DNA from: Candidatus Undinarchaeota archaeon | GTDB lineage: Archaea > SpSt-1190 | Assembly (NCBI GenBank): GCA_964449215.1 | Contig: CAYVAH010000024.1 | Location: forward strand, 1-12,339 | Length of the DNA stretch: 12,339 nt | Direction: 5' to 3' | In this document: in pieces, positions 2,581 to 12,339 of the stretch | Numbering within the stretch: position 1 is the stretch's first letter | Layout: each line of letters starts with the position of its first letter | Position numbers and translations under genes: made by a program | The notes under the pieces: generated by a model | Database searches by the model: none | Told to the model about the DNA's origin: nothing | The model's input: only the letters and a program-made list of their open reading frames with translations

Positions 2581-3297
2581 ATGATGCGACCCAAAAGGAA
2601 CAAGGTAGCAGTGTTCTTTGACTATGATGGCACTCTGGTGGAAGGGTCATCCTATGCCCGGATGGCTGAAATGCTCGGGGTGCAGCTGGATGAAAGCGGG
2701 TGGGGTGACTGGGAAACGGAAGAGGACTACAATAAAATTGACGAGGAAGATTTCCGGAGGATGCTGGAGGGGGGATACACCGACCGGAAGGGCAGGAAAC
2801 TTGCCAGGAAGGCTGCTGGGAATCAGGGGGTTCTGGAACTGCCCAAGCGGGTTGTTGAGAAGGTGAAGGCTATGGGTGCCGATGTCGGGGTCATTTCTCT
2901 GGGTTTCGGTGTGCTGGTGGATTATGAGGTCAAGAAAATGGGGATCCCCCGGAAGAACGTATATGTTTCCAGACTCACCTCCAAGAGGAGCATAGAAGAC
3001 CAGAAAGGGAACTGGCTCACGCCCCATGCCAAGGAAAGGATAATGAACGAACTGCGGTCACGTGGGGTGTACGGTGTCCTTCTGTTTGTTGGTGATGGGG
3101 GGTCTGATGCATATGCCATGAGGGCCTCAGACGGGTATGTTGTTCTGGGTAAGAAGGTGGAGGAAGTGTTCGAAAAACTGGGTGGCCCACCGGAGGGCGT
3201 GCCATACTGTGAGTGCAGAGACCTGCAGGATTTCCACGACAGGTTCGACGAGGTCATGGGGTACCTGCTCAAAACTGTTTTTTCGGGGGAGGTCTAG
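2581..3297 (+). CDS. HAD-superfamily hydrolase, phosphoserine-phosphatase-like (HAD-IB)
   Basis: Motif I FFDYDGTL, motif II VISLG, motif III Lys (HAKE), motif IV FVGDGGSD. Confidence 0.88.
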   Translation: MMRPKRNKVAVFFDYDGTLVEGSSYARMAEMLGVQLDESGWGDWETEEDYNKIDEEDFRRMLEGGYTDRKGRKLARKAAGNQGVLELPKRVVEKVKAMGADVGVISLGFGVLVDYEVKKMGIPRKNVYVSRLTSKRSIEDQKGNWLTPHAKERIMNELRSRGVYGVLLFVGDGGSDAYAMRASDGYVVLGKKVEEVFEKLGGPPEGVPYCECRDLQDFHDRFDEVMGYLLKTVFSGEV

Positions 3298-3655
3298 GAA
3301 GCCGTTCAGGCAGTTTTGTCTCGCTTTTCCAGAGCCCATGTATGTTGCACAGGGAAAGGGCCACAAGTTTCCCTCCGGATTTTACCCGGAATCTGAATGT
3401 CGCCCTCGGCTCTGTGATGGTCCCGGTTTCTCCGTGGGCACCGAACTCAGCCTTCCCGACCGGGTAGAGGAACTCGCCCTTTTCAGGTAAGTGATAGAGT
3501 TCCACCCACTTTATGTGATGCTCTGCCGTATTGGGGTGTGGAATCCCTTTCCCCACTACAACCTCTGCCGTGATTCTGCCATCCTTCACTTCGAGCAGCT
3601 CAATCACAGGCACATGCTTTTCCGTTTTCCAGTCCGCGGTTCTTATCCTTTCCAT
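3269..3655 (-). CDS. sor: Superoxide reductase (1Fe-SOR, neelaredoxin type)
   Basis: EKHVP, HPNTAEHHI and CNIHGLW supply the Glu/His4/Cys iron ligands. No desulforedoxin domain. Confidence 0.95.
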   Translation of the reverse strand: MERIRTADWKTEKHVPVIELLEVKDGRITAEVVVGKGIPHPNTAEHHIKWVELYHLPEKGEFLYPVGKAEFGAHGETGTITEPRATFRFRVKSGGKLVALSLCNIHGLWKSETKLPERLPRPPPKKQF

Positions 3656-3656
3656 T

Positions 3657-4502
3657 TTATTTCACCCCCAGCATCCCCCGGATACCCAGCCCGATTGCGA
3701 ATGACACTGTCGCCACCCCCAGGCTTATTGCGGCCATTTCCAGGAAGCTTTTCAGGAAATCTCTTTCCTTTATCACAGAGGAGAAGAAGGTGAAGATGAA
3801 AATTATAATGAGGGCATTGGCTGCTGCGACCGCCAGGGAAGAGTATGGATTCGAAAACAGGAAAAATGGAAGCACGAGCAGGAACACGGAAAGAAGGTAT
3901 GCTGCCCCTGTATAGCCTGCGGCCTGGAGGGCCTCCTCATTTCCTTCAGACCTTTGGGACAGATATTCTGAGGCTCCCATCGATAGGGTGGCTGAGATTC
4001 CAGTTATGAGGCCAGCGAGTCCGACGAGCCTGGAGTTTTGAAAGGCGAATGTGAGCCCTGCAAGCGTGCCCGTTATTTCCACGAGGGCGTCGTTTATGCC
4101 CAGCACCATTGATCCAATGTGGCGGACTTTACGCTCATCAATCAACCCCACCAAGAGTTTCTCATGTTCAACCTCATCTTTCACTATCTGCTTTGCCTCG
4201 GGGTATCCTTTTATGACCCTGGCGTATTTTTCTTGTGCCTCGCGCTCACCATTCTCCATAAGCTTCGCAACGAATGTTATCCCGAGCAGTTTTGCCAGGA
4301 GAGTGAACCAGAGAATCTTCCACCTGTCAGGTCTCACATCTTCTCCCGTGTATTTCCGCCACTCGGAATAGTGCCTGGCTTTGTCTTTCGCGAGCCGGAG
4401 GAGAGTCCGGGAGTTCTTCGGGTCCGCGAACCTGGCAAGCCTCCGGTAGATGTGGTGTTCCGTTATCTCCCCTCTCTGAAACTCCAGAATTGTGTTTTTC
4501 AC
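3657..4502 (-). CDS. Rubrerythrin-like (erythrin) domain fused to a VIT1/CCC1 iron transporter domain
   Basis: N-terminal ferritin-like helices (EITEHHIY, MENGE...Y, DEVEHE), then VIT1 motifs VLGINDALVE and SMGASEYLS, and about 5 TM segments. Confidence 0.9.
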   Translation of the reverse strand: MKNTILEFQRGEITEHHIYRRLARFADPKNSRTLLRLAKDKARHYSEWRKYTGEDVRPDRWKILWFTLLAKLLGITFVAKLMENGEREAQEKYARVIKGYPEAKQIVKDEVEHEKLLVGLIDERKVRHIGSMVLGINDALVEITGTLAGLTFAFQNSRLVGLAGLITGISATLSMGASEYLSQRSEGNEEALQAAGYTGAAYLLSVFLLVLPFFLFSNPYSSLAVAAANALIIIFIFTFFSSVIKERDFLKSFLEMAAISLGVATVSFAIGLGIRGMLGVK

Positions 4503-4576
4503 ACCGGGAAGAGTGTGGGAAATTTATATGTGTGCCTCCTACCAGAACTATTATATTTTCCCCATATATTGATTCT
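4503..4576. promoter_or_regulatory. Divergent promoter region (VIT1-sor / guaAB)
   Basis: Minus-strand TATAAAT at 4522-4528, about 20 nt before GTG 4502. Plus-strand TTATAT at 4551-4556, about 20 nt before ATG 4577. Confidence 0.6.
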
Positions 4577-5503
4577 ATGGGAAACTGGTCCGAATTTATT
4601 GAGAGAAAAGTTGAGGAGATTCGCGCTTATGTTGATGGGAAGGCGGTGGCTGCAGTATCGGGGGGCGTTGATAGTGCGGTGGCAGCCTTTCTGGTGAAGC
4701 GGGCAATTGGGGACCGGCTTTTTCCCGTGATTATCGATACCGGGTTCCTGAGGCAGGGGGAGGTGGAGGATGCAGTCCGGCGACTGACTGCCATTGGTCT
4801 TGGGCCGGAGGTCATGAACGAGCAGGACAGGTTCTTTGCAGCTCTGAAGGGGCTCAGGAATTCGGAGGAGAAGCGGCTGGCATTCGGTAAAGTCTATGGC
4901 GAGCTGCTTATGGAGTTCGCCAGGAAAAAAGGGGCGGAGTTCCTGGTCCAGGGGACCATTGCACCTGACTGGATTGAAAGCGGGGAAGGCCGCGAGAAGA
5001 TCAAAAGTCACCATAACGTGGGTGGTCTCAAAACAGAGCTCAAACTCGTTGAGCCGTTGCGCGAGCTCTACAAGGACCAGGTCCGGGAGGTTGCGTGTGT
5101 TATAGGATACGAGGCTCCAAGGCAGCCCTTTCCCGGTCCTGGCCTCTCGGTCCGTGTCCTCGGAGCTGTCACAAGGGAAAAGGTGGAGCTTATCAGGAAG
5201 GCAACCGCTGTGCTCGAGCGGGAAATTGAGGCTGCATCTGCCAGGGGTGAGTTCCCCCTGCCCTGGCAGTATTTTGCGGTTCTTCTGGACAGGAGCACAG
5301 GTGTTAAGGGTGACCTTCGCAGTTACGGATACACGGTGGCTCTGCGGGTGGTCAGCAGCAGGGACGGTATGAGCGCGGATATAGTGGAGCTGCCATACCC
5401 CCTGTTGCGGCGGCTGACTGCCAGAGTCTGTGCAATCCCGGGCATAAACAGGGTGGTTTATGATGTTACGACCAAACCTCCGGCAACGATTGAGTGGGAG
5501 TAA
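4577..5503 (+). CDS. guaAB: GMP synthase subunit B (ATP pyrophosphatase), 308 aa
   Basis: SGGVDS PP-loop, LVQGTIAPDWIES, IKSHHNVGG, PFPGPGL, YDVTTKPPATIEWE. Start moved to ATG 4577. Confidence 0.97.
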   Translation: MGNWSEFIERKVEEIRAYVDGKAVAAVSGGVDSAVAAFLVKRAIGDRLFPVIIDTGFLRQGEVEDAVRRLTAIGLGPEVMNEQDRFFAALKGLRNSEEKRLAFGKVYGELLMEFARKKGAEFLVQGTIAPDWIESGEGREKIKSHHNVGGLKTELKLVEPLRELYKDQVREVACVIGYEAPRQPFPGPGLSVRVLGAVTREKVELIRKATAVLEREIEAASARGEFPLPWQYFAVLLDRSTGVKGDLRSYGYTVALRVVSSRDGMSADIVELPYPLLRRLTARVCAIPGINRVVYDVTTKPPATIEWE

Positions 5504-6077
5504 GGTCCTGCTCATAGACAACAGGGGTCAGTGGACCTACCTTGAGGAGCGGATGCTGAAAGAACTGGGCGCCTCCGTGCTTGTGGTTCCAAACACCCGG
5601 TTGCCAGAGCTGGAGCGGTTCGATGCCGTTGTCCTCAGTGGTGGCTCGCCCAGAATCAGTCTTGATGAACTCGGGAGGGTTCCGGAGCTTGTTGATAGAT
5701 GTGCCGAGCTGGAGAAGCCTCTGCTCGGCATCTGTGTTGGCCACCAGTATCTTGCTGTCCATTTTGGTGGTGGTGCTGAACCTGCGGAGGTTCCGGAGTT
5801 CGGCCCCGTTGAGCTCAGGTTGCTTGACCGGGGTCACATATTTTCAGGTCTGCCGGAGCGTTTCAGGGTCTGGGAGAGCCACAACGACGAGGTGAAGCAC
5901 CCTGGCAGGCTTCTACCGATGGCGAGTTCCGATACTTGCCGGTATCAGGCCCTGCGTCATCCTGAACTTCCAATCTACGGTGTGCAGTTCCACCCGGAGG
6001 TCAATGAAGCTCAGTTCGGCCGCGAGATTTTCACGAACTTTTTGTTGGGTAGCGGGCGGGAAGGGCGGTTTATATAG
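5490..6077 (+). CDS. guaAA: GMP synthase subunit A (class I glutamine amidotransferase)
   Basis: IDNRGQW, LSGG, LGICVGHQ (catalytic Cys), WESHNDEV, GVQFHPEV (His-Glu). Start uncertain: TTG 5490 or ATG 5460/5463. Confidence 0.93.
   Translation: MSGSKVLLIDNRGQWTYLEERMLKELGASVLVVPNTRLPELERFDAVVLSGGSPRISLDELGRVPELVDRCAELEKPLLGICVGHQYLAVHFGGGAEPAEVPEFGPVELRLLDRGHIFSGLPERFRVWESHNDEVKHPGRLLPMASSDTCRYQALRHPELPIYGVQFHPEVNEAQFGREIFTNFLLGSGREGRFI
6069..6076 (+). promoter_or_regulatory. TATA box for the protease-HypC gene, embedded in the guaAA 3' end
   Basis: TTTATATA ends 20 nt before ATG 6097 and overlaps the guaAA stop codon. Confidence 0.6.
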
Positions 6078-6096: not shown

Positions 6097-6666
6097 ATGA
6101 TTGGCATCCTCGCGGTTGGGAATGAGCTCCGGGGGGATGATGGCGTTGGGATATATGCCGGGAGGCTGCTGAAGGACAGGGGTTTCCCGGTGGTGTTTGC
6201 CCACGAGAACCCGGAGAACGTGATTGACAAATTGCGCGGCTTTGATAGGATAGTGGTGCTGGACGCCGCCCATTTTTCCGGGAATGAGCCTTTCAGGGTT
6301 GTGCAGCCGGGTGATTCCCATTACAGCCACCGGCCGGGGCTTTCGAAACTGGCAGGGTTTCTCGGCGTTCCCTTCGTGGTGGTCGGCATAAAGGCATATA
6401 AGAGGGCTCTGTTTAGGGGTGTCAGTGATAGGGCGAAGGAAAACGCCCGTGCGGCGGTGAAGGTGGTTGAAATGTGTATGGCTCTTCCGGGTGTGGTGGT
6501 TGATGCTGAAAGGAAGCTGGTGGACGTGAACGGCAAGGAAAAGCAGGTTAAGTTTGCGGTCCCGGGGGTGAAGAAGGGGGACTTTGTTCTGATTCATGCA
6601 GGGGTTGTCATTGAGAGGCTGACTGCCGAGGAATTCGAGGAAGCCCGGAAGGCAATCATCTTGTGA
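6097..6666 (+). CDS. Hydrogenase maturation protease (HycI-like, aa 1-125) fused in frame to HypC (aa 126-189)
   Basis: GNELRGDDGVG, VVLDAA, YSH and VVGI mark the HycI/HybD protease family. These run with no stop codon into MCMALPG...VKKGDFVLIHAGVVIE, the HypC signature. Confidence 0.9.
   Translation: MIGILAVGNELRGDDGVGIYAGRLLKDRGFPVVFAHENPENVIDKLRGFDRIVVLDAAHFSGNEPFRVVQPGDSHYSHRPGLSKLAGFLGVPFVVVGIKAYKRALFRGVSDRAKENARAAVKVVEMCMALPGVVVDAERKLVDVNGKEKQVKFAVPGVKKGDFVLIHAGVVIERLTAEEFEEARKAIIL
6472..6666 (+). other. hypC: HypC/HybG/HupF domain, possibly also translated from an internal start (64 aa)
   Basis: ATG 6472 begins MCMALPG with the canonical Cys2. AGGTG lies 6 nt upstream, matching SD spacing elsewhere in the window. 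Confidence 0.8.
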
Positions 6667-7837
6667 AGAGGAACATCTGGGAGTTCACAAACTCGAAGAA
6701 GGGCTTCGGGAAGAGCCCCAGTGCAACCGAGAGGATGAACACGCCATAGAGGAACGCGCGGAACTTCTTGTTGACCTTTTTTTCTTCTGAGCCCTGTATG
6801 GAGGACAGGATGCGCAGGGCGACCAGGGCGTTGAGTATCAGGTTGAAGAGCAGGAAATATGAGACCGGCTGGGAAGCGGAGAAGACGGAGGAGAACAGCA
6901 GTATTTTGCTGGGGAAGAGGTGGAAGGGGGGAAGACCCGACAGGGCAAAGAAGGATGCATAGAATGGTAGCTCGAGTCCCCGGGGCGCCCTGAGGTCGTG
7001 TATGTCCAGGGAGCCGGACACCACGAGGGCGGTGAATGCGAAGCTCATGGCCAGCACGTGGCAGAACATCATGTAGAGGGCTGCTGTTCTCGAGCCGGGG
7101 CTTGCCATGGCGATTGCCAGCAGGAGATATGCGAGGTTGGAGGCGTCCATCAGGGCGAGTATCCTTTTTGTGGAGTTCTCTGTGAGTGCCATTGCATTCG
7201 CTATGAACATGGAGAACATCGCGAAGGCCTGGAGGACGGGGGACGGTTCCTGAATGATTATGAGCAGGGCGAGGGGGCTGATTTCCGTGAGTATTGCGGA
7301 GAAAAAGAGGATTGAGGACAGGGAAGCAGTGCGATAGATTTCCACCAGCCAGTCCTGGAATGGAGCTATGCCGAGTTTTATCAGGAGTCCGAGTGTGAAG
7401 AACACCAGAGCGCCACCGGTGAGTGCTGTGAGGGAACCCGTGGTGTAGTATTCAATCGCTATTGAGAAGAGCATCAGGGCGCTCCCCACTGAGTTAACCA
7501 CAAAATAGCGGAACACCGCGCGGAGGTCCCTCTTTTCAAGTATGAGGAAGTAGGAGGCATAGATGGCGAGTTCAAAATACACGAACAGCTCAAGAAGGTT
7601 GGAGCTTTGAAGGATGCCTATCAGGTCGAACATTGCCAGGAAAAAAAGCGGGTATTTTTCTGCCGGCCAGCTGGAGAGCCAGAGGACCAGCAGGGAAAGC
7701 CCGAAGAAGAAAGAGGCGATGAGGTGTCCACTCTCAATGGAGACAAGAATGGCTGCAAGGAAAGCCGCAGCTGTCAGCGGCTTTCTCATTCCCCTCATAA
7801 AGGGGAGTATAAGGGCCAGGGTCAGGAGGATGTCCAT
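6656..7837 (-). CDS. Antiporter-like membrane subunit, NuoN/MrpD-like (393 aa)
   Basis: FVYFEL, YFVVNSVGSALML, IKLGIAPFQDWLVEIY, KRILA, LSGLPPF...SK. GGTG lies 5 nt before the ATG. Confidence 0.88.
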   Translation of the reverse strand: MDILLTLALILPFMRGMRKPLTAAAFLAAILVSIESGHLIASFFFGLSLLVLWLSSWPAEKYPLFFLAMFDLIGILQSSNLLELFVYFELAIYASYFLILEKRDLRAVFRYFVVNSVGSALMLFSIAIEYYTTGSLTALTGGALVFFTLGLLIKLGIAPFQDWLVEIYRTASLSSILFFSAILTEISPLALLIIIQEPSPVLQAFAMFSMFIANAMALTENSTKRILALMDASNLAYLLLAIAMASPGSRTAALYMMFCHVLAMSFAFTALVVSGSLDIHDLRAPRGLELPFYASFFALSGLPPFHLFPSKILLFSSVFSASQPVSYFLLFNLILNALVALRILSSIQGSEEKKVNKKFRAFLYGVFILSVALGLFPKPFFEFVNSQMFLFTR

Positions 7838-8970
7838 GGTATCACCCCGGGTAACAGTAGCAGTGCTATTATGAGTGGGAGAGCCGTTTCGAGCTTTCTC
7901 CCGGACTTCTTGAAGAATACAGATAGGAGTCTCTCACAGTAGAGTATTGTGGGGAAAATTGCGAAGGCGAAAAATAACCCTGCGACCTTCGAGTATGCCC
8001 AGGTGGATTTCAGTATCCCAAGTTCCGTTGTGAATCCAAGCAGGGGTGGGAAGCCCGCCAGGGAGAGTGAGGATATGAGGGTCGTCAGGAACAGGGTTTT
8101 GGAGTCCACACGTATGTCACGGATTATGCGCATCCCTGTGTTTCTTATCAGCTCACCCGCTGTGAAGAAAAGGGAAGCCTTCGCCAGGGCATGCATTATC
8201 AGGAACAGGACCAGGAATTCCCTGGAGGTTAAAAGGGCGATGGCTGCGTATCCCATCTGTGAGACCGTTGAGTATGCAAGCAGCCGTTTTATGTCGTGTT
8301 CAGCGTTGGCGCCGACCGCTCCATAGATGGCAGAAATAATTCCAAGTGGAAGGAGGAGTTCAGGGGTTGAGGAATAGCGGAATACTCCGTAGGCGCCGCA
8401 GGCAACGACTGCTCCTGACAGCAGTGCGGAGAGCTGGAAAGGTGCTTGTGAGTGTGCGTCAGGTAGCCAGGAGTGGAAAGGGAACAGACCCATTTTTATT
8501 GCAAAACCAAGGGTCAGGAGTATGGAGGCGACTTTCCCTTCCCCGAGGAGCCCGGCAAGCACCAGCACCGATGACACCTGCATGAACCCGAAATACTTGA
8601 AGGCTGCGGAGGGGTCTTCCTGAAGTATTATGTAAAAGGCCGGGAAGAGCATCAGTTCGAGGAAGAAGAACAGCTCGAAGGGGTTGGTTGCACCGAGAAA
8701 CCCCACCAGCCCTGCAGAGAAAAGTATGAGCATTGCAATAACCGATTTTTTCAGGTCCCGTGCATAGACCAGTGAGGTCATCACCAGAAGGGCGAATGTG
8801 AAGGCGAGCGAGGGGTGCTGGGGGTTCCATGAGAACACTGTTCCAGGAAGCCATTCGAAGCGAAGCTGTTCATTCACGAAAAGGAAGGAAAGGATGGCAG
8901 ACCACCTTGCCAGATTCGGGTAATAGAGTGCCAGGACCGCGGAAGTCACGAGTATTGCTATTGTCAGCAC
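7822..8970 (-). CDS. Antiporter-like membrane subunit, NuoM/HyfB-like (382 aa)
   Basis: FFFLELM, IKMGLFPFHSWLPDAHSQAP, KRLLAYSTVSQMGY, HALAKASLF, GFPPLLGFTTE. Confidence 0.9.
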   Translation of the reverse strand: MLTIAILVTSAVLALYYPNLARWSAILSFLFVNEQLRFEWLPGTVFSWNPQHPSLAFTFALLVMTSLVYARDLKKSVIAMLILFSAGLVGFLGATNPFELFFFLELMLFPAFYIILQEDPSAAFKYFGFMQVSSVLVLAGLLGEGKVASILLTLGFAIKMGLFPFHSWLPDAHSQAPFQLSALLSGAVVACGAYGVFRYSSTPELLLPLGIISAIYGAVGANAEHDIKRLLAYSTVSQMGYAAIALLTSREFLVLFLIMHALAKASLFFTAGELIRNTGMRIIRDIRVDSKTLFLTTLISSLSLAGFPPLLGFTTELGILKSTWAYSKVAGLFFAFAIFPTILYCERLLSVFFKKSGRKLETALPLIIALLLLPGVIPWTSS

Positions 8971-10364
8971 AGCATCACCCCCATTGCAAGAGCCGCCAGT
9001 GAAGCGGCGATATACCCCACATCCCTGCCCACCGGGCCTGTGAATGTCCTGTTCAGCCTCTGGGAACCGTGCCTGGCAGCTCTCCCCACCAGATACCCCC
9101 AGTTTTCCAGTCTTTCTTCAGGAGGCTCCATCTCCGGGAACTTTCTGGAGAACAGCCAGTTGAGGGCATTGCCAGTGGCTGCCAGCGGCTTGAAGTTGAA
9201 GAGTATCAGTCCCGCTGCTGTTGCTGCGAGGATCGAGACCGTGCTGGAAAGCGGTGGCACTGACACGGGGTAGAGCAGCACTGAAAGGCCTGCCATTACA
9301 AGGGCAAGGAAGGTGCCAACCCCCCTTCGTGGGGGGGCTCCACCGGAAAAGCTTGCACAGTACATCCGGGTGAAGTACAAGACGGAGAGGAACACCGTCA
9401 GGGCCGCCGTGTTCTCACCAATCTTGAACCAGAACATTCCAAGGAGGGGTGCTCCTGAAAGTGAAAGCATGAGGAAAAGGGAAAGAGCGGAGGAAAGGGA
9501 TTTCCTGTTCAGTCCGGTTTCAAGTTCATATCCCTGTCCTGCAGCGTAGGTTCCGACAAGTATGAAGTAGGCGGCCTTGAGGAAGGCGTGCACTGAGAAT
9601 GCCACGGGTAGGAGGGGGGAGCTGAAGACCGTGTAGAGGAATGCCACCGTAGCTATGGTGGAGTATGCGAGCACCCTCTTCTGGTTGTGCTGGACAAGGG
9701 CAAGAAACGATGCCACAACAATCGAAAGCATTGCCCAACCCCTGATAAACCCGGAGAGGAACAGGAAGTGTTCCTGGAACCTGTGGAGCAAGAGGGGTCC
9801 CGCAGCTACCATGGTGGCTGAGTGGAGCAGTGCTGACACAGGGGTGGGAGCCTCCATCGCGTCGGGCAGCCACACGAAGGGGATTTGAGATGACTTGATC
9901 ATCGCCGCTATGAATAGCAGCAGGGCTGCAGTAGGGGGAACGACACCAAAGCTGAAGCTTCCAGTTTCCAGGCTTATCAGCACGATTGCCAGCAGAAATG
10001 CAACGCCACTTATTCTGTTGATTACCAGGGCCCGTCTTGCAGCTTTTCTCGCAGGTTCCGTTTCCCTGAGTGCTATTAGCAGGTAGGAGCAAAGACCCAT
10101 CAGTTCCCAGGAAAAATAGAGGTAAAGCCAGTCCTGTGCGTTCAGGAATAGCAGCATACTCGCCAGAAACACGGTCATCAACGCCACAAACTCGCGTTTT
10201 CTGTGCTTTATGTAGTCCATCGCGAATAACAGCGTGAAGAGACCTGTTGCAAGGCAGACCCCGTCCAGCAGGTTGCTCTGCACGGTAAGGGCTGCGAGTG
10301 TGGCCAGGACAGAAGCCCAGGGGGTAAGGAAGGAAAGAGCAGCACCTGCGAGGAGTTCCATCAT
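8964..10364 (-). CDS. Antiporter-like membrane subunit, NuoL/MrpA-like (about 466 aa)
   Basis: WELMGLCSYLLI, IKSSQIPFVWLPDAMEAPTPVSALLHSATMVAAG, KRVLAYST, HAFLKA, and a C-terminal lateral-helix-like stretch ending FTG plus one TM. ATG 10364 forms an ATGA overlap; GTG 10370 is the alternative start. Confidence 0.92.
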   Translation of the reverse strand: MMELLAGAALSFLTPWASVLATLAALTVQSNLLDGVCLATGLFTLLFAMDYIKHRKREFVALMTVFLASMLLFLNAQDWLYLYFSWELMGLCSYLLIALRETEPARKAARRALVINRISGVAFLLAIVLISLETGSFSFGVVPPTAALLLFIAAMIKSSQIPFVWLPDAMEAPTPVSALLHSATMVAAGPLLLHRFQEHFLFLSGFIRGWAMLSIVVASFLALVQHNQKRVLAYSTIATVAFLYTVFSSPLLPVAFSVHAFLKAAYFILVGTYAAGQGYELETGLNRKSLSSALSLFLMLSLSGAPLLGMFWFKIGENTAALTVFLSVLYFTRMYCASFSGGAPPRRGVGTFLALVMAGLSVLLYPVSVPPLSSTVSILAATAAGLILFNFKPLAATGNALNWLFSRKFPEMEPPEERLENWGYLVGRAARHGSQRLNRTFTGPVGRDVGYIAASLAALAMGVMLC

Positions 10365-10600
10365 TTCCACATCACCCTGTAGTTGCGAACGCCTGCCGTC
10401 CTCAATATCAGCAGGGAAAATGCAAATGGAACGGCTTCGATTGCCAGCAGGAAAAGGACTATGTCAGAGGCTCCGACCTTCACGAAGAGCAGGATTGCCG
10501 GGAAGGCGAGGAGGCTCGTTATTGCGGTGACTTTCAGCACGTCTCCCTCCCTGATGAGCCCATAAATGCAGAGCGTTAGTATGGAAACCTCCCAGATCAT
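10361..10600 (-). CDS. Small 3-TM subunit, NuoK/MnhC/MbhG-like (79 aa)
   Basis: IYGLIREGDVLK resembles GxYGLxxxxNLxK, with a TM3 Glu (LAIEAV). Sits directly before the NuoL-like gene. GAGGTG lies 5 nt before the ATG. Confidence 0.75.
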   Translation of the reverse strand: MIWEVSILTLCIYGLIREGDVLKVTAITSLLAFPAILLFVKVGASDIVLFLLAIEAVPFAFSLLILRTAGVRNYRVMWK

Positions 10601-10758
10601 TTTATCACCTCTATCCCTGCGACAAATGTGAACACCAGGGTGAAGGCCAGGAAAACCTCGTTGGTTCCGAGCCGGGCGAAGCTCGCTGCGGGGGGAGGAG
10701 AACCAAGCAGCATTACCAGGACTCCTAACAGTAAAACTGCGAGTGCTTCAGTCTTCAA
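10597..10758 (-). CDS. Small 2-TM subunit (53 aa), probable MbhE/MnhB-like or NuoJ C-terminal half
   Basis: Manual translation from TTG 10758 (GGAGGTG 6 nt upstream): MKTEALAVLLLGVLVMLLGSPPPAASFARLGTNEVFLAFTLVFTFVAGIEVIK. Its stop forms an ATGA overlap with the next gene. Missing from the ORF track. Confidence 0.75.
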   Translation of the reverse strand: MKTEALAVLLLGVLVMLLGSPPPAASFARLGTNEVFLAFTLVFTFVAGIEVIK

Positions 10759-10960
10759 TTATTTCACCTCCAAAGACCAGAAGAGCTATTGCTCCCATCG
10801 CCGACGCCATTGCCTGGACCGCCGCCGGTAGCACCATTCCCTTTTCGAACATGAAGGCTGCAAGCATCAGTCCGGCAGCAAAGAATGAAACAGCCACGTG
10901 CTCATGCTTCCTCGAAAGCACAACAGCCATAACCAGCACAGCTATGACAGACTCAAAGAT
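10748..10960 (-). CDS. Small 3-TM subunit, DUF4040/MbhD-like or NuoJ N-terminal half (63-70 aa)
   Basis: VIAVLVMAVVLSRKHEHVAVSFFAAGLMLAAFMFEKGMVLPAAVQA fits the MbhD/NuoJ-N pattern. Start uncertain: ATC 10960 (ideal SD spacing) or GTG 10939. Confidence 0.7.
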   Translation of the reverse strand: MFESVIAVLVMAVVLSRKHEHVAVSFFAAGLMLAAFMFEKGMVLPAAVQAMASAMGAIALLVFGGEIIED

Positions 10961-11730
10961 ACTACCACCTCCATCATGGCAATGATGTTCAGGGCTGTGA
11001 GATACCGGACCACCTTGTCCATCTGGAACCTGGGGAGAGCCACCGACACGAGTGATATTGCGATGAAGACCCCCAGAGTTTTTGCAAGGAGCCAGGCGGA
11101 CCCGAAAAAGGAAGCGAGAAGCGCACACACCGCAACGGCTTTTGCCTGTGTTGCATAATTGGTCAGCCCCAGGAGCGCTCCTGAAAGCTCAGCTTTCCAG
11201 CCACCTGCTATTTCGGACTCAGCTGTTGGCACGTCAAATGGTGGGAGTTCAAGCTCGGCCATGGCAGCCACAAATGCTACCGGGAAGAACACCAGCGCTG
11301 CTGGCGGCCATGGCAGGTCAAAGCCAAAGAGGAAAGCGGGTGCCAGGAAGGCAAGGGGAAATGCCGGGTCCAGGGACATCTTCATCCCGGCAAGTCTCGA
11401 GGCGCCTTGCATGGTAAAAGGGCTCTTTGACTCGAAGGCAATGAATGTCTTCAGGGCGATATCCACGAGGAAAAGTGCAAGCAGGATGACCAGCCTGTGA
11501 CTCCACTGGCTGAGTGCCACGAACAGGGCGAGAACATCCGTGGCGACCAGGAAAAGCACGGCCACCACGAGCAACCACCCCTTTTTCGGGAGTATCACTT
11601 CTTTGTTCAGGAGCTTCAGGAAATCATAAACGGGCTGCAGCAGTGGGGGTCCCACGCGCTTCTGCACCCTGGCGTCAAGCTTCCGCTGGACCCACTCAAA
11701 CAGGAAAGGCAGCAGCAGCTCATAGGCCAT
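10942..11730 (-). CDS. Complex I subunit 1 family (NuoH/HycD/EchB/MbhM-like), 262 aa
   Basis: RKLDARVQKRVGPPLLQPVYDFLKLLNKE and PPFDVPTAESEIAGG...ELSG, LPRFQMD. Confidence 0.95.
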   Translation of the reverse strand: MAYELLLPFLFEWVQRKLDARVQKRVGPPLLQPVYDFLKLLNKEVILPKKGWLLVVAVLFLVATDVLALFVALSQWSHRLVILLALFLVDIALKTFIAFESKSPFTMQGASRLAGMKMSLDPAFPLAFLAPAFLFGFDLPWPPAALVFFPVAFVAAMAELELPPFDVPTAESEIAGGWKAELSGALLGLTNYATQAKAVAVCALLASFFGSAWLLAKTLGVFIAISLVSVALPRFQMDKVVRYLTALNIIAMMEVVVSLSLS

Positions 11731-11938
11731 TCATCCACCCCTTTATCAGTGCCAGTAACAGGATTATGCTGGCTGAAGGTTCCTGAGGGATTATGAATAT
11801 TGAGGTGTGAATTGCTATGAGGGTGAGAAAAATGCGCGGGTAACCAACGGAGCCAGCTCTACCTGCGAGGTCGTGGCCGGCCGCATAGACCCTATGCTTC
11901 CAGTCTATTTTTTCATTACCAGTGCTTTTGTTGGACAT
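11720..11938 (-). CDS. Hypothetical small membrane protein within the operon (about 72 aa, start uncertain)
   Basis: The only long minus-strand frame spanning the 174-nt gap between the NuoI-like and NuoH-like genes. Two short hydrophobic stretches, and the stop overlaps the NuoH-like start as other operon junctions do. Confidence 0.55.
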   Translation of the reverse strand: MSNKSTGNEKIDWKHRVYAAGHDLAGRAGSVGYPRIFLTLIAIHTSIFIIPQEPSASIILLLALIKGWMNGL

Positions 11939-12168
11939 ACTTCTGTGCATACCGAACACCTTATGCATTTCTCGTGGTCAACTTTCACGAACCCTTCTTC
12001 GACCACGCTTATCGCCACTGCAGGGCAGTGCTTTACACAGAGGTGGCACTTTATACACTTGCTCTTGTCATAGGCCACCCTGCTCTCCGCCCACCTGGGG
12101 GTCTCCCTCCTGAAACCCTCGATGGTTTCTCTCCTGCGAAACAGACCTATCAACGCTTTGAGGAACAC
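11905..12168 (-). CDS. 2x[4Fe-4S] ferredoxin subunit, NuoI/EchF/MbhN-like (87 aa)
   Basis: CIKCHLCVKHCP and CIRCSVCTEVCP, with an N-terminal LKALIGLFRRRET typical of NuoI-like subunits. Confidence 0.92.
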   Translation of the reverse strand: MFLKALIGLFRRRETIEGFRRETPRWAESRVAYDKSKCIKCHLCVKHCPAVAISVVEEGFVKVDHEKCIRCSVCTEVCPTKALVMKK

Positions 12169-12338
12169 AGCTCAGCACCTTTTTTTATCGCGGCTATTAT
12201 GTCCGATGGCTTTGGCGGGCACCCCTCCACCTTTATGTCTCCCTTTATCCGGGGTCCCTTGCACTTGAACACACCACCATTTATGGCACAGGCACCTATG
12301 GCTATCGTTACCTTCGGTTCCGGCCCCTGTTCAAGCAC
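12150..12338 (-). CDS. NuoB/EchC/MbhJ-like small Fe-S subunit, C-terminal part (5' end outside the window)
   Basis: PEPKVTIAIGACAINGGVF and D-x-x-V-x-GCPPKP. Confidence 0.93.
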   Translation of the reverse strand: MLEQGPEPKVTIAIGACAINGGVFKCKGPRIKGDIKVEGCPPKPSDIIAAIKKGAELCSSKR

Positions 12339-12339
12339 C

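Follow-up and report, generated by a model that had tools for sequence, protein, structure and literature searches.

A hydrogenase maturation protease fused in frame to HypC in an archaeal family, with a probable nested start for free HypC

Introduction

Genes that encode a second protein within their own reading frame are known from phage lambda, where an internal in-frame start allows the 3′ part of a protease gene to be translated separately as well (C/Nu3). In archaea, the Haloferax volcanii Cas8b/Cas11b gene carries an internal in-frame start, with a possible Shine–Dalgarno (SD) sequence, from which the C-terminal domain is made separately, and a 2025 paper presents this as the first such start to be proven in archaea (PMC11899642). 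For hydrogenases, passages of a 2025 review describe six Hyp proteins as necessary for all [NiFe] enzymes, the N-terminal Cys of HypC as essential in the canonical system, and the maturation proteases as cutting large subunits only after nickel insertion (PMC12134894). Group 3b hydrogenase loci of CPR microbes have a neighbouring protein family, fam002, some members of which are HypC-like (PMC7304191).

The locus described here lies in a 12,339-nt stretch of archaeal DNA (the window, taken at its full length) and joins a hydrogenase maturation protease to HypC in one frame. Like Cas8b/Cas11b, the fused gene is archaeal and has an internal in-frame start at a domain boundary, here with a conserved ribosome-binding site; unlike that pair, whose proteins are unrelated, its internal start would create an N-terminal Cys, alternates between ATG and GTG, is family-wide and is predicted from sequence. 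The nested protease-gene layout is that of lambda C/Nu3, whose proteins are again unrelated and serve viral capsid assembly. As with fam002, the hydrogenases are those of a small-genome microbe and have a HypC-like neighbour family; the fam002 passages mention no protease fusion, DUF6390 or loss of HypD, HypE and HypF, and the supplements of that paper may bear on DUF6390 (PMC7304191). The word "maturation" is absent from the available text of PMC8091004, PMC8421398 and PMC7414124. A literature search that left most subscription papers and all supplements outside its scope found no description of a protease–HypC fusion, nothing on DUF6390, and nothing on HypC with an internal in-frame start codon in a hydrogenase context. 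The protease–HypC gene appears to be a new instance of nested in-frame genes, within a maturation module undescribed in print.

Results

Translation of the frame at 6097–6666 (+ strand) was free of stops and gave a protein of 189 amino acids. The maturation protease profile TIGR00072 matched residues 4–125 (56.8 bits; cut-off, 47.45) and PF01455 matched residues 126–186 (51.4 bits; cut-off, 28.5), which bears out the uninterrupted run from protease into HypC proposed in an earlier, sequence-only reading of the window. An AlphaFold model of the fusion had a pLDDT of 86.8, and both folds were recovered from it with Foldseek; the junction was modelled as a helix (residues 111–128) that is the last helix of the protease and runs through Met126–Cys127. 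The ESM Atlas held no usable match to the fusion. A metagenome contig (L031), possibly from the same sample, encodes the identical 189 residues (100%), and contigs from two of four sequencing runs (X3 and X4) bridged the junction without gaps; X1 had no coverage there and X2 gave nothing. Because of this second copy, the gap-free contigs and 20 non-self homologues, the fusion is genuine and not an assembly error. An assembly or strain-specific artefact might be suspected given that the source is a metagenome-assembled genome and that one relative is split; with eight of ten genomes and all 20 homologues fused and two runs crossing the junction, it has next to no chance of being the explanation.

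The domain encoded by 6097–6471 (+) belongs to the hydrogenase maturation protease family TIGR00072 and is predicted to be a nickel-dependent protease. It adopts the HybD/HycI fold (Foldseek: PDB 5zby, E = 1.3e-10; 5ija, E = 5.4e-9), with putative metal ligands at D15 (6139–6141), D56 (6262–6264) and H78 (6328–6330), all on the + strand. D15 and D56 were invariant in an alignment of 21 proteins and H78 was conserved in 20; the three align to the acidic/acidic/His triad of 5ija, which we take to be metal-binding, as in HybD and HycI. Compared with HybD/HycI (TIGR00072; PDB 5ija, 5zby and 1cfz), the profile, the fold, the Asp/Asp/His set and a large subunit with a C-terminal extension are the same, whereas the fused protease bears a C-terminal HypC domain and scores only 32.9 on the HycI equivalog TIGR00142 (cut-off, 119.1). 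The label "HycI-like" given to it earlier is thus apt in the broad sense of TIGR00072 and too narrow if the HycI equivalog is meant. The large subunit in the source genome (C39:167–1369) keeps four Cys residues and a 16-residue extension after the L2 motif, and the protease therefore has a candidate substrate. Such an extension was likewise present in four other large subunits of the fused family that were available whole, as well as in the split relative, G004. Large subunits of three further genomes (L238, L239 and L240, from G015, G014 and G013) end at the L2 His without an extension and are clustered with hypC and DUF6390; HypD was not found in those genomes.

The rest of the frame, 6472–6666 (+), is a nested in-frame hypC ORF of 64 amino acids. 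Its Cys127 (codon 6475–6477), which would be N-terminal after Met removal, and its His167 (codon 6595–6597), which lines up with the His of PDB 2z1c, were invariant in all 21 aligned proteins, and the HypC fold was found in the fusion model (Foldseek, 2z1c, TMt 0.71). The domain has the fold, the Cys at domain position 2 and the conserved His in common with HypC/HybG/HupF (PF01455; PDB 2z1c and 3vyr). It differs from them in being encoded inside another gene, in occurring in genomes where HypD, HypE and HypF were not found, and in falling below the TIGR00074 cut-off when the whole fusion is scored (36.3 against 48). In each of the eight fused genomes, the fused gene was the only hypC match, and a Met aminopeptidase gene was found in genome G000.

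An internal SD core, AGGTG, lies at 6461–6465 (+) within the codons for K122 and V123 in the last helix of the protease, followed by an out-of-frame TGA at 6468 and the ATG at 6472. From 21 loci examined, 12 non-redundant fused genes with DNA were kept for codon analysis; a copy of the window's gene, one near-duplicate, six duplicates and the split locus were dropped. As a correction to the sequence-only reading, the Met before Cys127 is itself not conserved (Val in 18 of 22 proteins, Met in four), but a start-type codon is: ATG was used in four of the 12 genes and GTG in eight, that is, in every non-redundant gene with Val at this place, and never GTT, GTC or GTA, against GTG at 85 of 237 other Val codons (36%). 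V123 was GTG in 12 of 12 genes, and position 122 was AAG for all nine Lys (background 112/239, 47%) and AGG for all three Arg; GGTG stood 6 nt upstream of the start codon in every gene. Among 45 four-fold columns, only the two Val columns, 123 and 126, used a single codon, with GC3 of the genes ranging from 0.17 to 0.67. The naive probabilities of the fixed codons (7e-7, 2e-4 and 1e-3) are inflated by kinship, for which the other 43 columns provide a fair control.

The 16S tail of the source genome is intact (GGATCACCTCCT), and GGTG in that genome peaks at spacer 5 (range 5–8) ahead of operon-internal starts, of which 167 were crudely called. At the nested site the spacer is 6 and the 16S-tail duplex −11.0 kcal/mol, the best decile of operon-internal starts being at −11.2; duplexes across the 12 fused genes ranged from −9.3 to −12.8 kcal/mol. 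AGGTG at the spacing of the nested site preceded only 15 of 6683 internal in-frame ATG/GTG codons. Since synonymous codons 122, 123 and 126 are fixed so as to spell an SD and a start, codon conservation in 12 genes argues strongly for the nested start at AGGTG/ATG 6472 that had been offered as one of several options. At a probability of roughly 0.8, the buried Cys is best explained by such a start, with one mRNA giving rise to both protease–HypC and a free, Cys-first HypC.

A TATA-like box (TTTATATA) occupies 6069–6076 (+), 28 nt before ATG 6097. TATA-like hexamers peak genome-wide at −30 to −26 from start codons, and among the 12 fused genes a hexamer was found at a similar place in seven, further upstream in two and not at all in three. 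The SD of the 6097 start is weak (−6.2 kcal/mol) but the box at −28 matches the genome-wide peak, and the long mRNA is for this reason probably leaderless. A possible, weak internal TATA box (CATATA, A-rich upstream) lies at 6395–6400 (+), 77 nt before the nested start; Y101 was encoded by TAT in 12 of 12 genes against 22 of 44 other Tyr in the same genes (naive p = 1.3e-3, about 0.05 after 39 columns), and this box is only suggestive. TATAA is otherwise avoided in the coding DNA of G000 (139 of 573 Tyr + AA).

Downstream, the fused gene converges on the distal part of a group 4 (Mbh-like) membrane-bound hydrogenase operon (6656–12339, − strand), recognized by profile matches to the small-subunit C terminus, a 4Fe–4S subunit, a NuoH-like subunit and MrpA/D-like subunits. 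The large subunit and the small-subunit N terminus are on contig C39. The 3′ ends of the fused gene and of the last MrpD-like gene overlap by 11 nt (6656–6666), and the convergent layout recurred in the other fused loci tested. Profile searches, in which positive controls were detected and absence from an incomplete genome is to be read as "not found", gave HypD and HypE in none of the eight fused genomes (84–95% complete) and, within the family, only in G004. HypF was above cut-off in none of the ten family genomes, G004 (72% complete) included; HypA was found in none of three fused genomes tested, and HypB above cut-off in neither of two. The canonical Fe(CN)2CO delivery that had been assumed for this HypC is at odds with these results, HypD, HypE and HypF being undetected in fused genomes.

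At the other end of the window, a DUF6390 protein (965–1642, −; PF19927) consists of a helical N-terminal domain and a C-terminal HypC fold, and an EamA-family permease (1629–2570, −; PF00892) lies directly upstream of it. DUF6390 carries an internal Cys147 and His193 in the HypC fold, together with invariant Cys20 and His123. In its model (pLDDT 94), residues 147–220 superposed on HypC 2z1c with a middling Z of 6.7 (rmsd 2.3, 65 residues aligned), and hhalign matched DUF6390 to the nested HypC at 94.5%, Cys on Cys. A Foldseek search with DUF6390 returned no match at E ≤ 0.001; HypC chains ranked 1–4. As modelled, residues 147–220 are a HypC fold. Complex prediction for nested HypC with DUF6390 scored 0.01, a value that carries no weight either way. 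DUF6390 was present in all eight fused genomes (seven by Pfam, G003 by a custom profile) and was not found in G004. EamA adjoined DUF6390 in most related loci tested, and the pair, which in the window lies at 965–2570, is often divergent from the fused gene in related loci.

The relation between DUF6390 and HypD was also followed in another archaeal phylum. Of 132 genomes at least 85% complete, 51 had a large subunit, and among these DUF6390 was found in 40, HypD in five, both in none and neither in six (Fisher p = 2e-4, the genomes being kin and not independent); the 81 genomes without a large subunit had no DUF6390. The swap between DUF6390 and HypD was seen inside two genera of that phylum. 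DUF6390 and HypD were mutually exclusive in the 51 hydrogenase-bearing genomes and in the fused family. Five further genomes with DUF6390 had no HypF, and HypA was above cut-off in two of three such genomes tested. Genome G011, with a large subunit and no HypD, gave only a weak DUF6390-like match. On a Thermoplasmata contig (L185:5084–10065), a large subunit in a 695-residue open frame is followed by hypC, EamA and DUF6390.

The ten genomes of the family make up the whole order examined; eight carry the fused gene, G004 has it as two genes, and in G005 (83% complete) neither the fused gene nor a large subunit was found. Genome G000 measures 0.79 Mb and is 95% complete. Depositors labelled the records with the fusion Candidatus Altiarchaeota or Undinarchaeota, and the best-matching sequencing runs are labelled hydrothermal vent metagenomes; among 11 runs listed with matches, none was of RNA. 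A protein search that admitted proteins of at least 103 amino acids, so that stand-alone proteases of the clade could have shown up, yielded 21 proteins: one near-identical and 20 non-self at 50–71% identity, all covering 94–100%. Short stand-alone relatives were seven distant HypC proteins (33–41% identity). In a search of 1.84 billion representatives, both domains were spanned, among the best 150 of 1290 profile matches, only by the family representative and one fragment. Across 297 loci, 37 ORFs with both domains, many of them duplicates, all belonged to the fused family, with no independent fusion elsewhere; protease and hypC were adjacent but separate in 20 loci, four of which are those of G004 and others of which come from other lineages. 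Because all two-domain ORFs fall in one family and adjacent separate genes occur in other lineages, the fusion is probably a single-family trait derived from an adjacent protease–hypC gene order.

The G004 protease is longer at its tail, and a single base separates its stop from the ATG–Cys of a separate hypC that has a strong SD. In the trees of both RpoA1 halves, G004 falls inside the fused group (96/95 and 100/98), and placement outside it was rejected (AU p = 0.005), so that the split is probably a reversal from the fused state; the split as the ancestral state was rejected on the same trees. The protease tree agrees on this placement, although the G004 protease forms a long branch in it; the large-subunit tree lacks resolution at this point. 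If the split is a reversal, a stop could reappear immediately ahead of the nested ATG and leave both genes intact, which fits a HypC that already started alone. G004 also has a canonical hypC–hypD–hypE cluster (L237; G004:C6:5955–7552), separate from the split protease–hypC pair, on a contig that ends in hypE; this cluster was possibly regained by transfer or is possibly a binning contaminant.

Elsewhere in the window, a gene with a desulfoferrodoxin/superoxide-reductase domain lies beside a VIT1-family gene (3269–4502, −). In three related loci, the VIT1 gene is directly divergent from the fused gene, which hints at a link to iron handling. GMP synthase is encoded in two genes, for the ATP-pyrophosphatase and the glutaminase (4490–6077, +), and the TATA box of the fused gene falls within the last codons of the latter. 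A 155-residue ORF (466–933, −) had no Pfam or NCBIfam match. The ORF at 2–154 (−), cut off at the contig end, presumably resembles the DUF262/GmrSD N terminus.

Discussion

We propose that transcription from the TATA box at 6069 would give a leaderless mRNA, to be read from ATG 6097 into protease–HypC (about 20 kDa from its length). This product would remove the C-terminal extension from the large subunit of the group 4 hydrogenase, while its own HypC Cys, part of the junction helix, would not be free. Ribosomes would also load at AGGTG/ATG 6472 to produce free HypC of about 7 kDa, and Met aminopeptidase would expose its N-terminal Cys, whereupon the free protein could bind iron and the apo large subunit. 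As HypD, HypE and HypF were not found, the probable partners of this HypC are DUF6390 and the EamA permease and not HypD. The fusion itself probably dates to the family ancestor, in which neighbouring protease and hypC genes would have lost the spacer that separated them. In 11 of 12 genes, codon 125 (GAA or AAA) is one base change from a stop, yet none of 22 fused proteins stops there; T. kodakarensis HybD ends only about four residues beyond this position. This suggests that read-through into HypC is itself kept and is not explained by a tolerated tail alone. A tethered HypC could serve as a useful docking module for the protease on its substrate, although the odds are somewhat against it, and the coupling of the first and last maturation steps by the fusion, also raised in the sequence-only reading, is possible.

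The strongest objection to a nested start comes from DUF6390, whose HypC fold has an internal Cys that is invariant yet is not preceded by a start codon, so that a free N terminus is not proven necessary and may, by analogy, matter less in a DUF6390-bearing pathway. GTG starts may also be weak, and the codon evidence comes from the DNA of 12 genes. One could accordingly suppose that full-length fusion alone is made and that its HypC domain works via an internal Cys, as that of DUF6390 seems to: Cys147 aligns on HypC Cys2, the canonical partner HypD was found in none of eight fused genomes, and all 22 proteins run through the junction without a stop. We regard this as unlikely, as the fixed synonymous positions of codons 122, 123 and 126 are left unexplained by it and Cys127 is modelled within the last helix of the protease. 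The internal Cys of DUF6390 is the best counter-argument to the nested start, yet it too leaves the frozen codons unaccounted for.

Release of HypC from the fusion by its own or another protease, which the sequence-only reading had listed, would make use of an intact protease in cis and of a conserved junction sequence. That conservation is at the nucleotide level (codons 122, 123 and 126), the residue before Cys alternates between Met and Val as ATG and GTG would, and the junction is helical in the model; such proteases, moreover, cut large subunits only after nickel insertion, in the passages of the review cited above (PMC12134894). Cleavage finds no support here and is very unlikely. The out-of-frame TGA had been read as a possible relic of a two-gene junction, and one may picture the protease ending at it, by programmed frameshifting or as such a relic, with HypC re-initiated by translational coupling; TGA is present at −4 in eight of 12 genes, and the split genome has a stop, 1 nt and an ATG. 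As a general mechanism, frameshift or relic was rejected because TGA is absent in the other four genes, three of which have a stop of the other frame at −5 and one none there; no slippery sequence was seen in the junction alignment rows, and the only split relative is derived and not ancestral. We give this arrangement barely any credence. The TGA is made up of the T of the preceding Val/Ile codon and the GA of Glu, and its T is probably favoured by extended pairing with the 16S tail.

With the nested start as the preferred reading, a broader and more doubtful picture may be sketched, which as a whole we hold only tentatively. Symbiotic archaea may use a minimal [NiFe]-type route free of HypD, HypE and HypF, in which free HypC, a HypC-docked protease and DUF6390/EamA would together take up or assemble a metal unit. 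Docking would link trimming to the place where the chaperone binds the immature large subunit, DUF6390 would supply the third HypC fold together with additional Cys/His ligands, and the metal unit would possibly be ready-made host Fe(CN)2CO or a centre without CN and CO.

If the nested start is true, this family would provide the second archaeal case of an internal in-frame start, one that is family-wide and gives rise to a functional group, the N-terminal Cys. As gene callers annotate the fusion alone, the free HypC would be invisible in databases. The locus would also define a very small hydrogenase maturation kit, comprising the protease, HypC, DUF6390 and EamA, in genomes without HypD, HypE and HypF, and such a kit makes the origin of the metal centre of these enzymes testable by heterologous expression.
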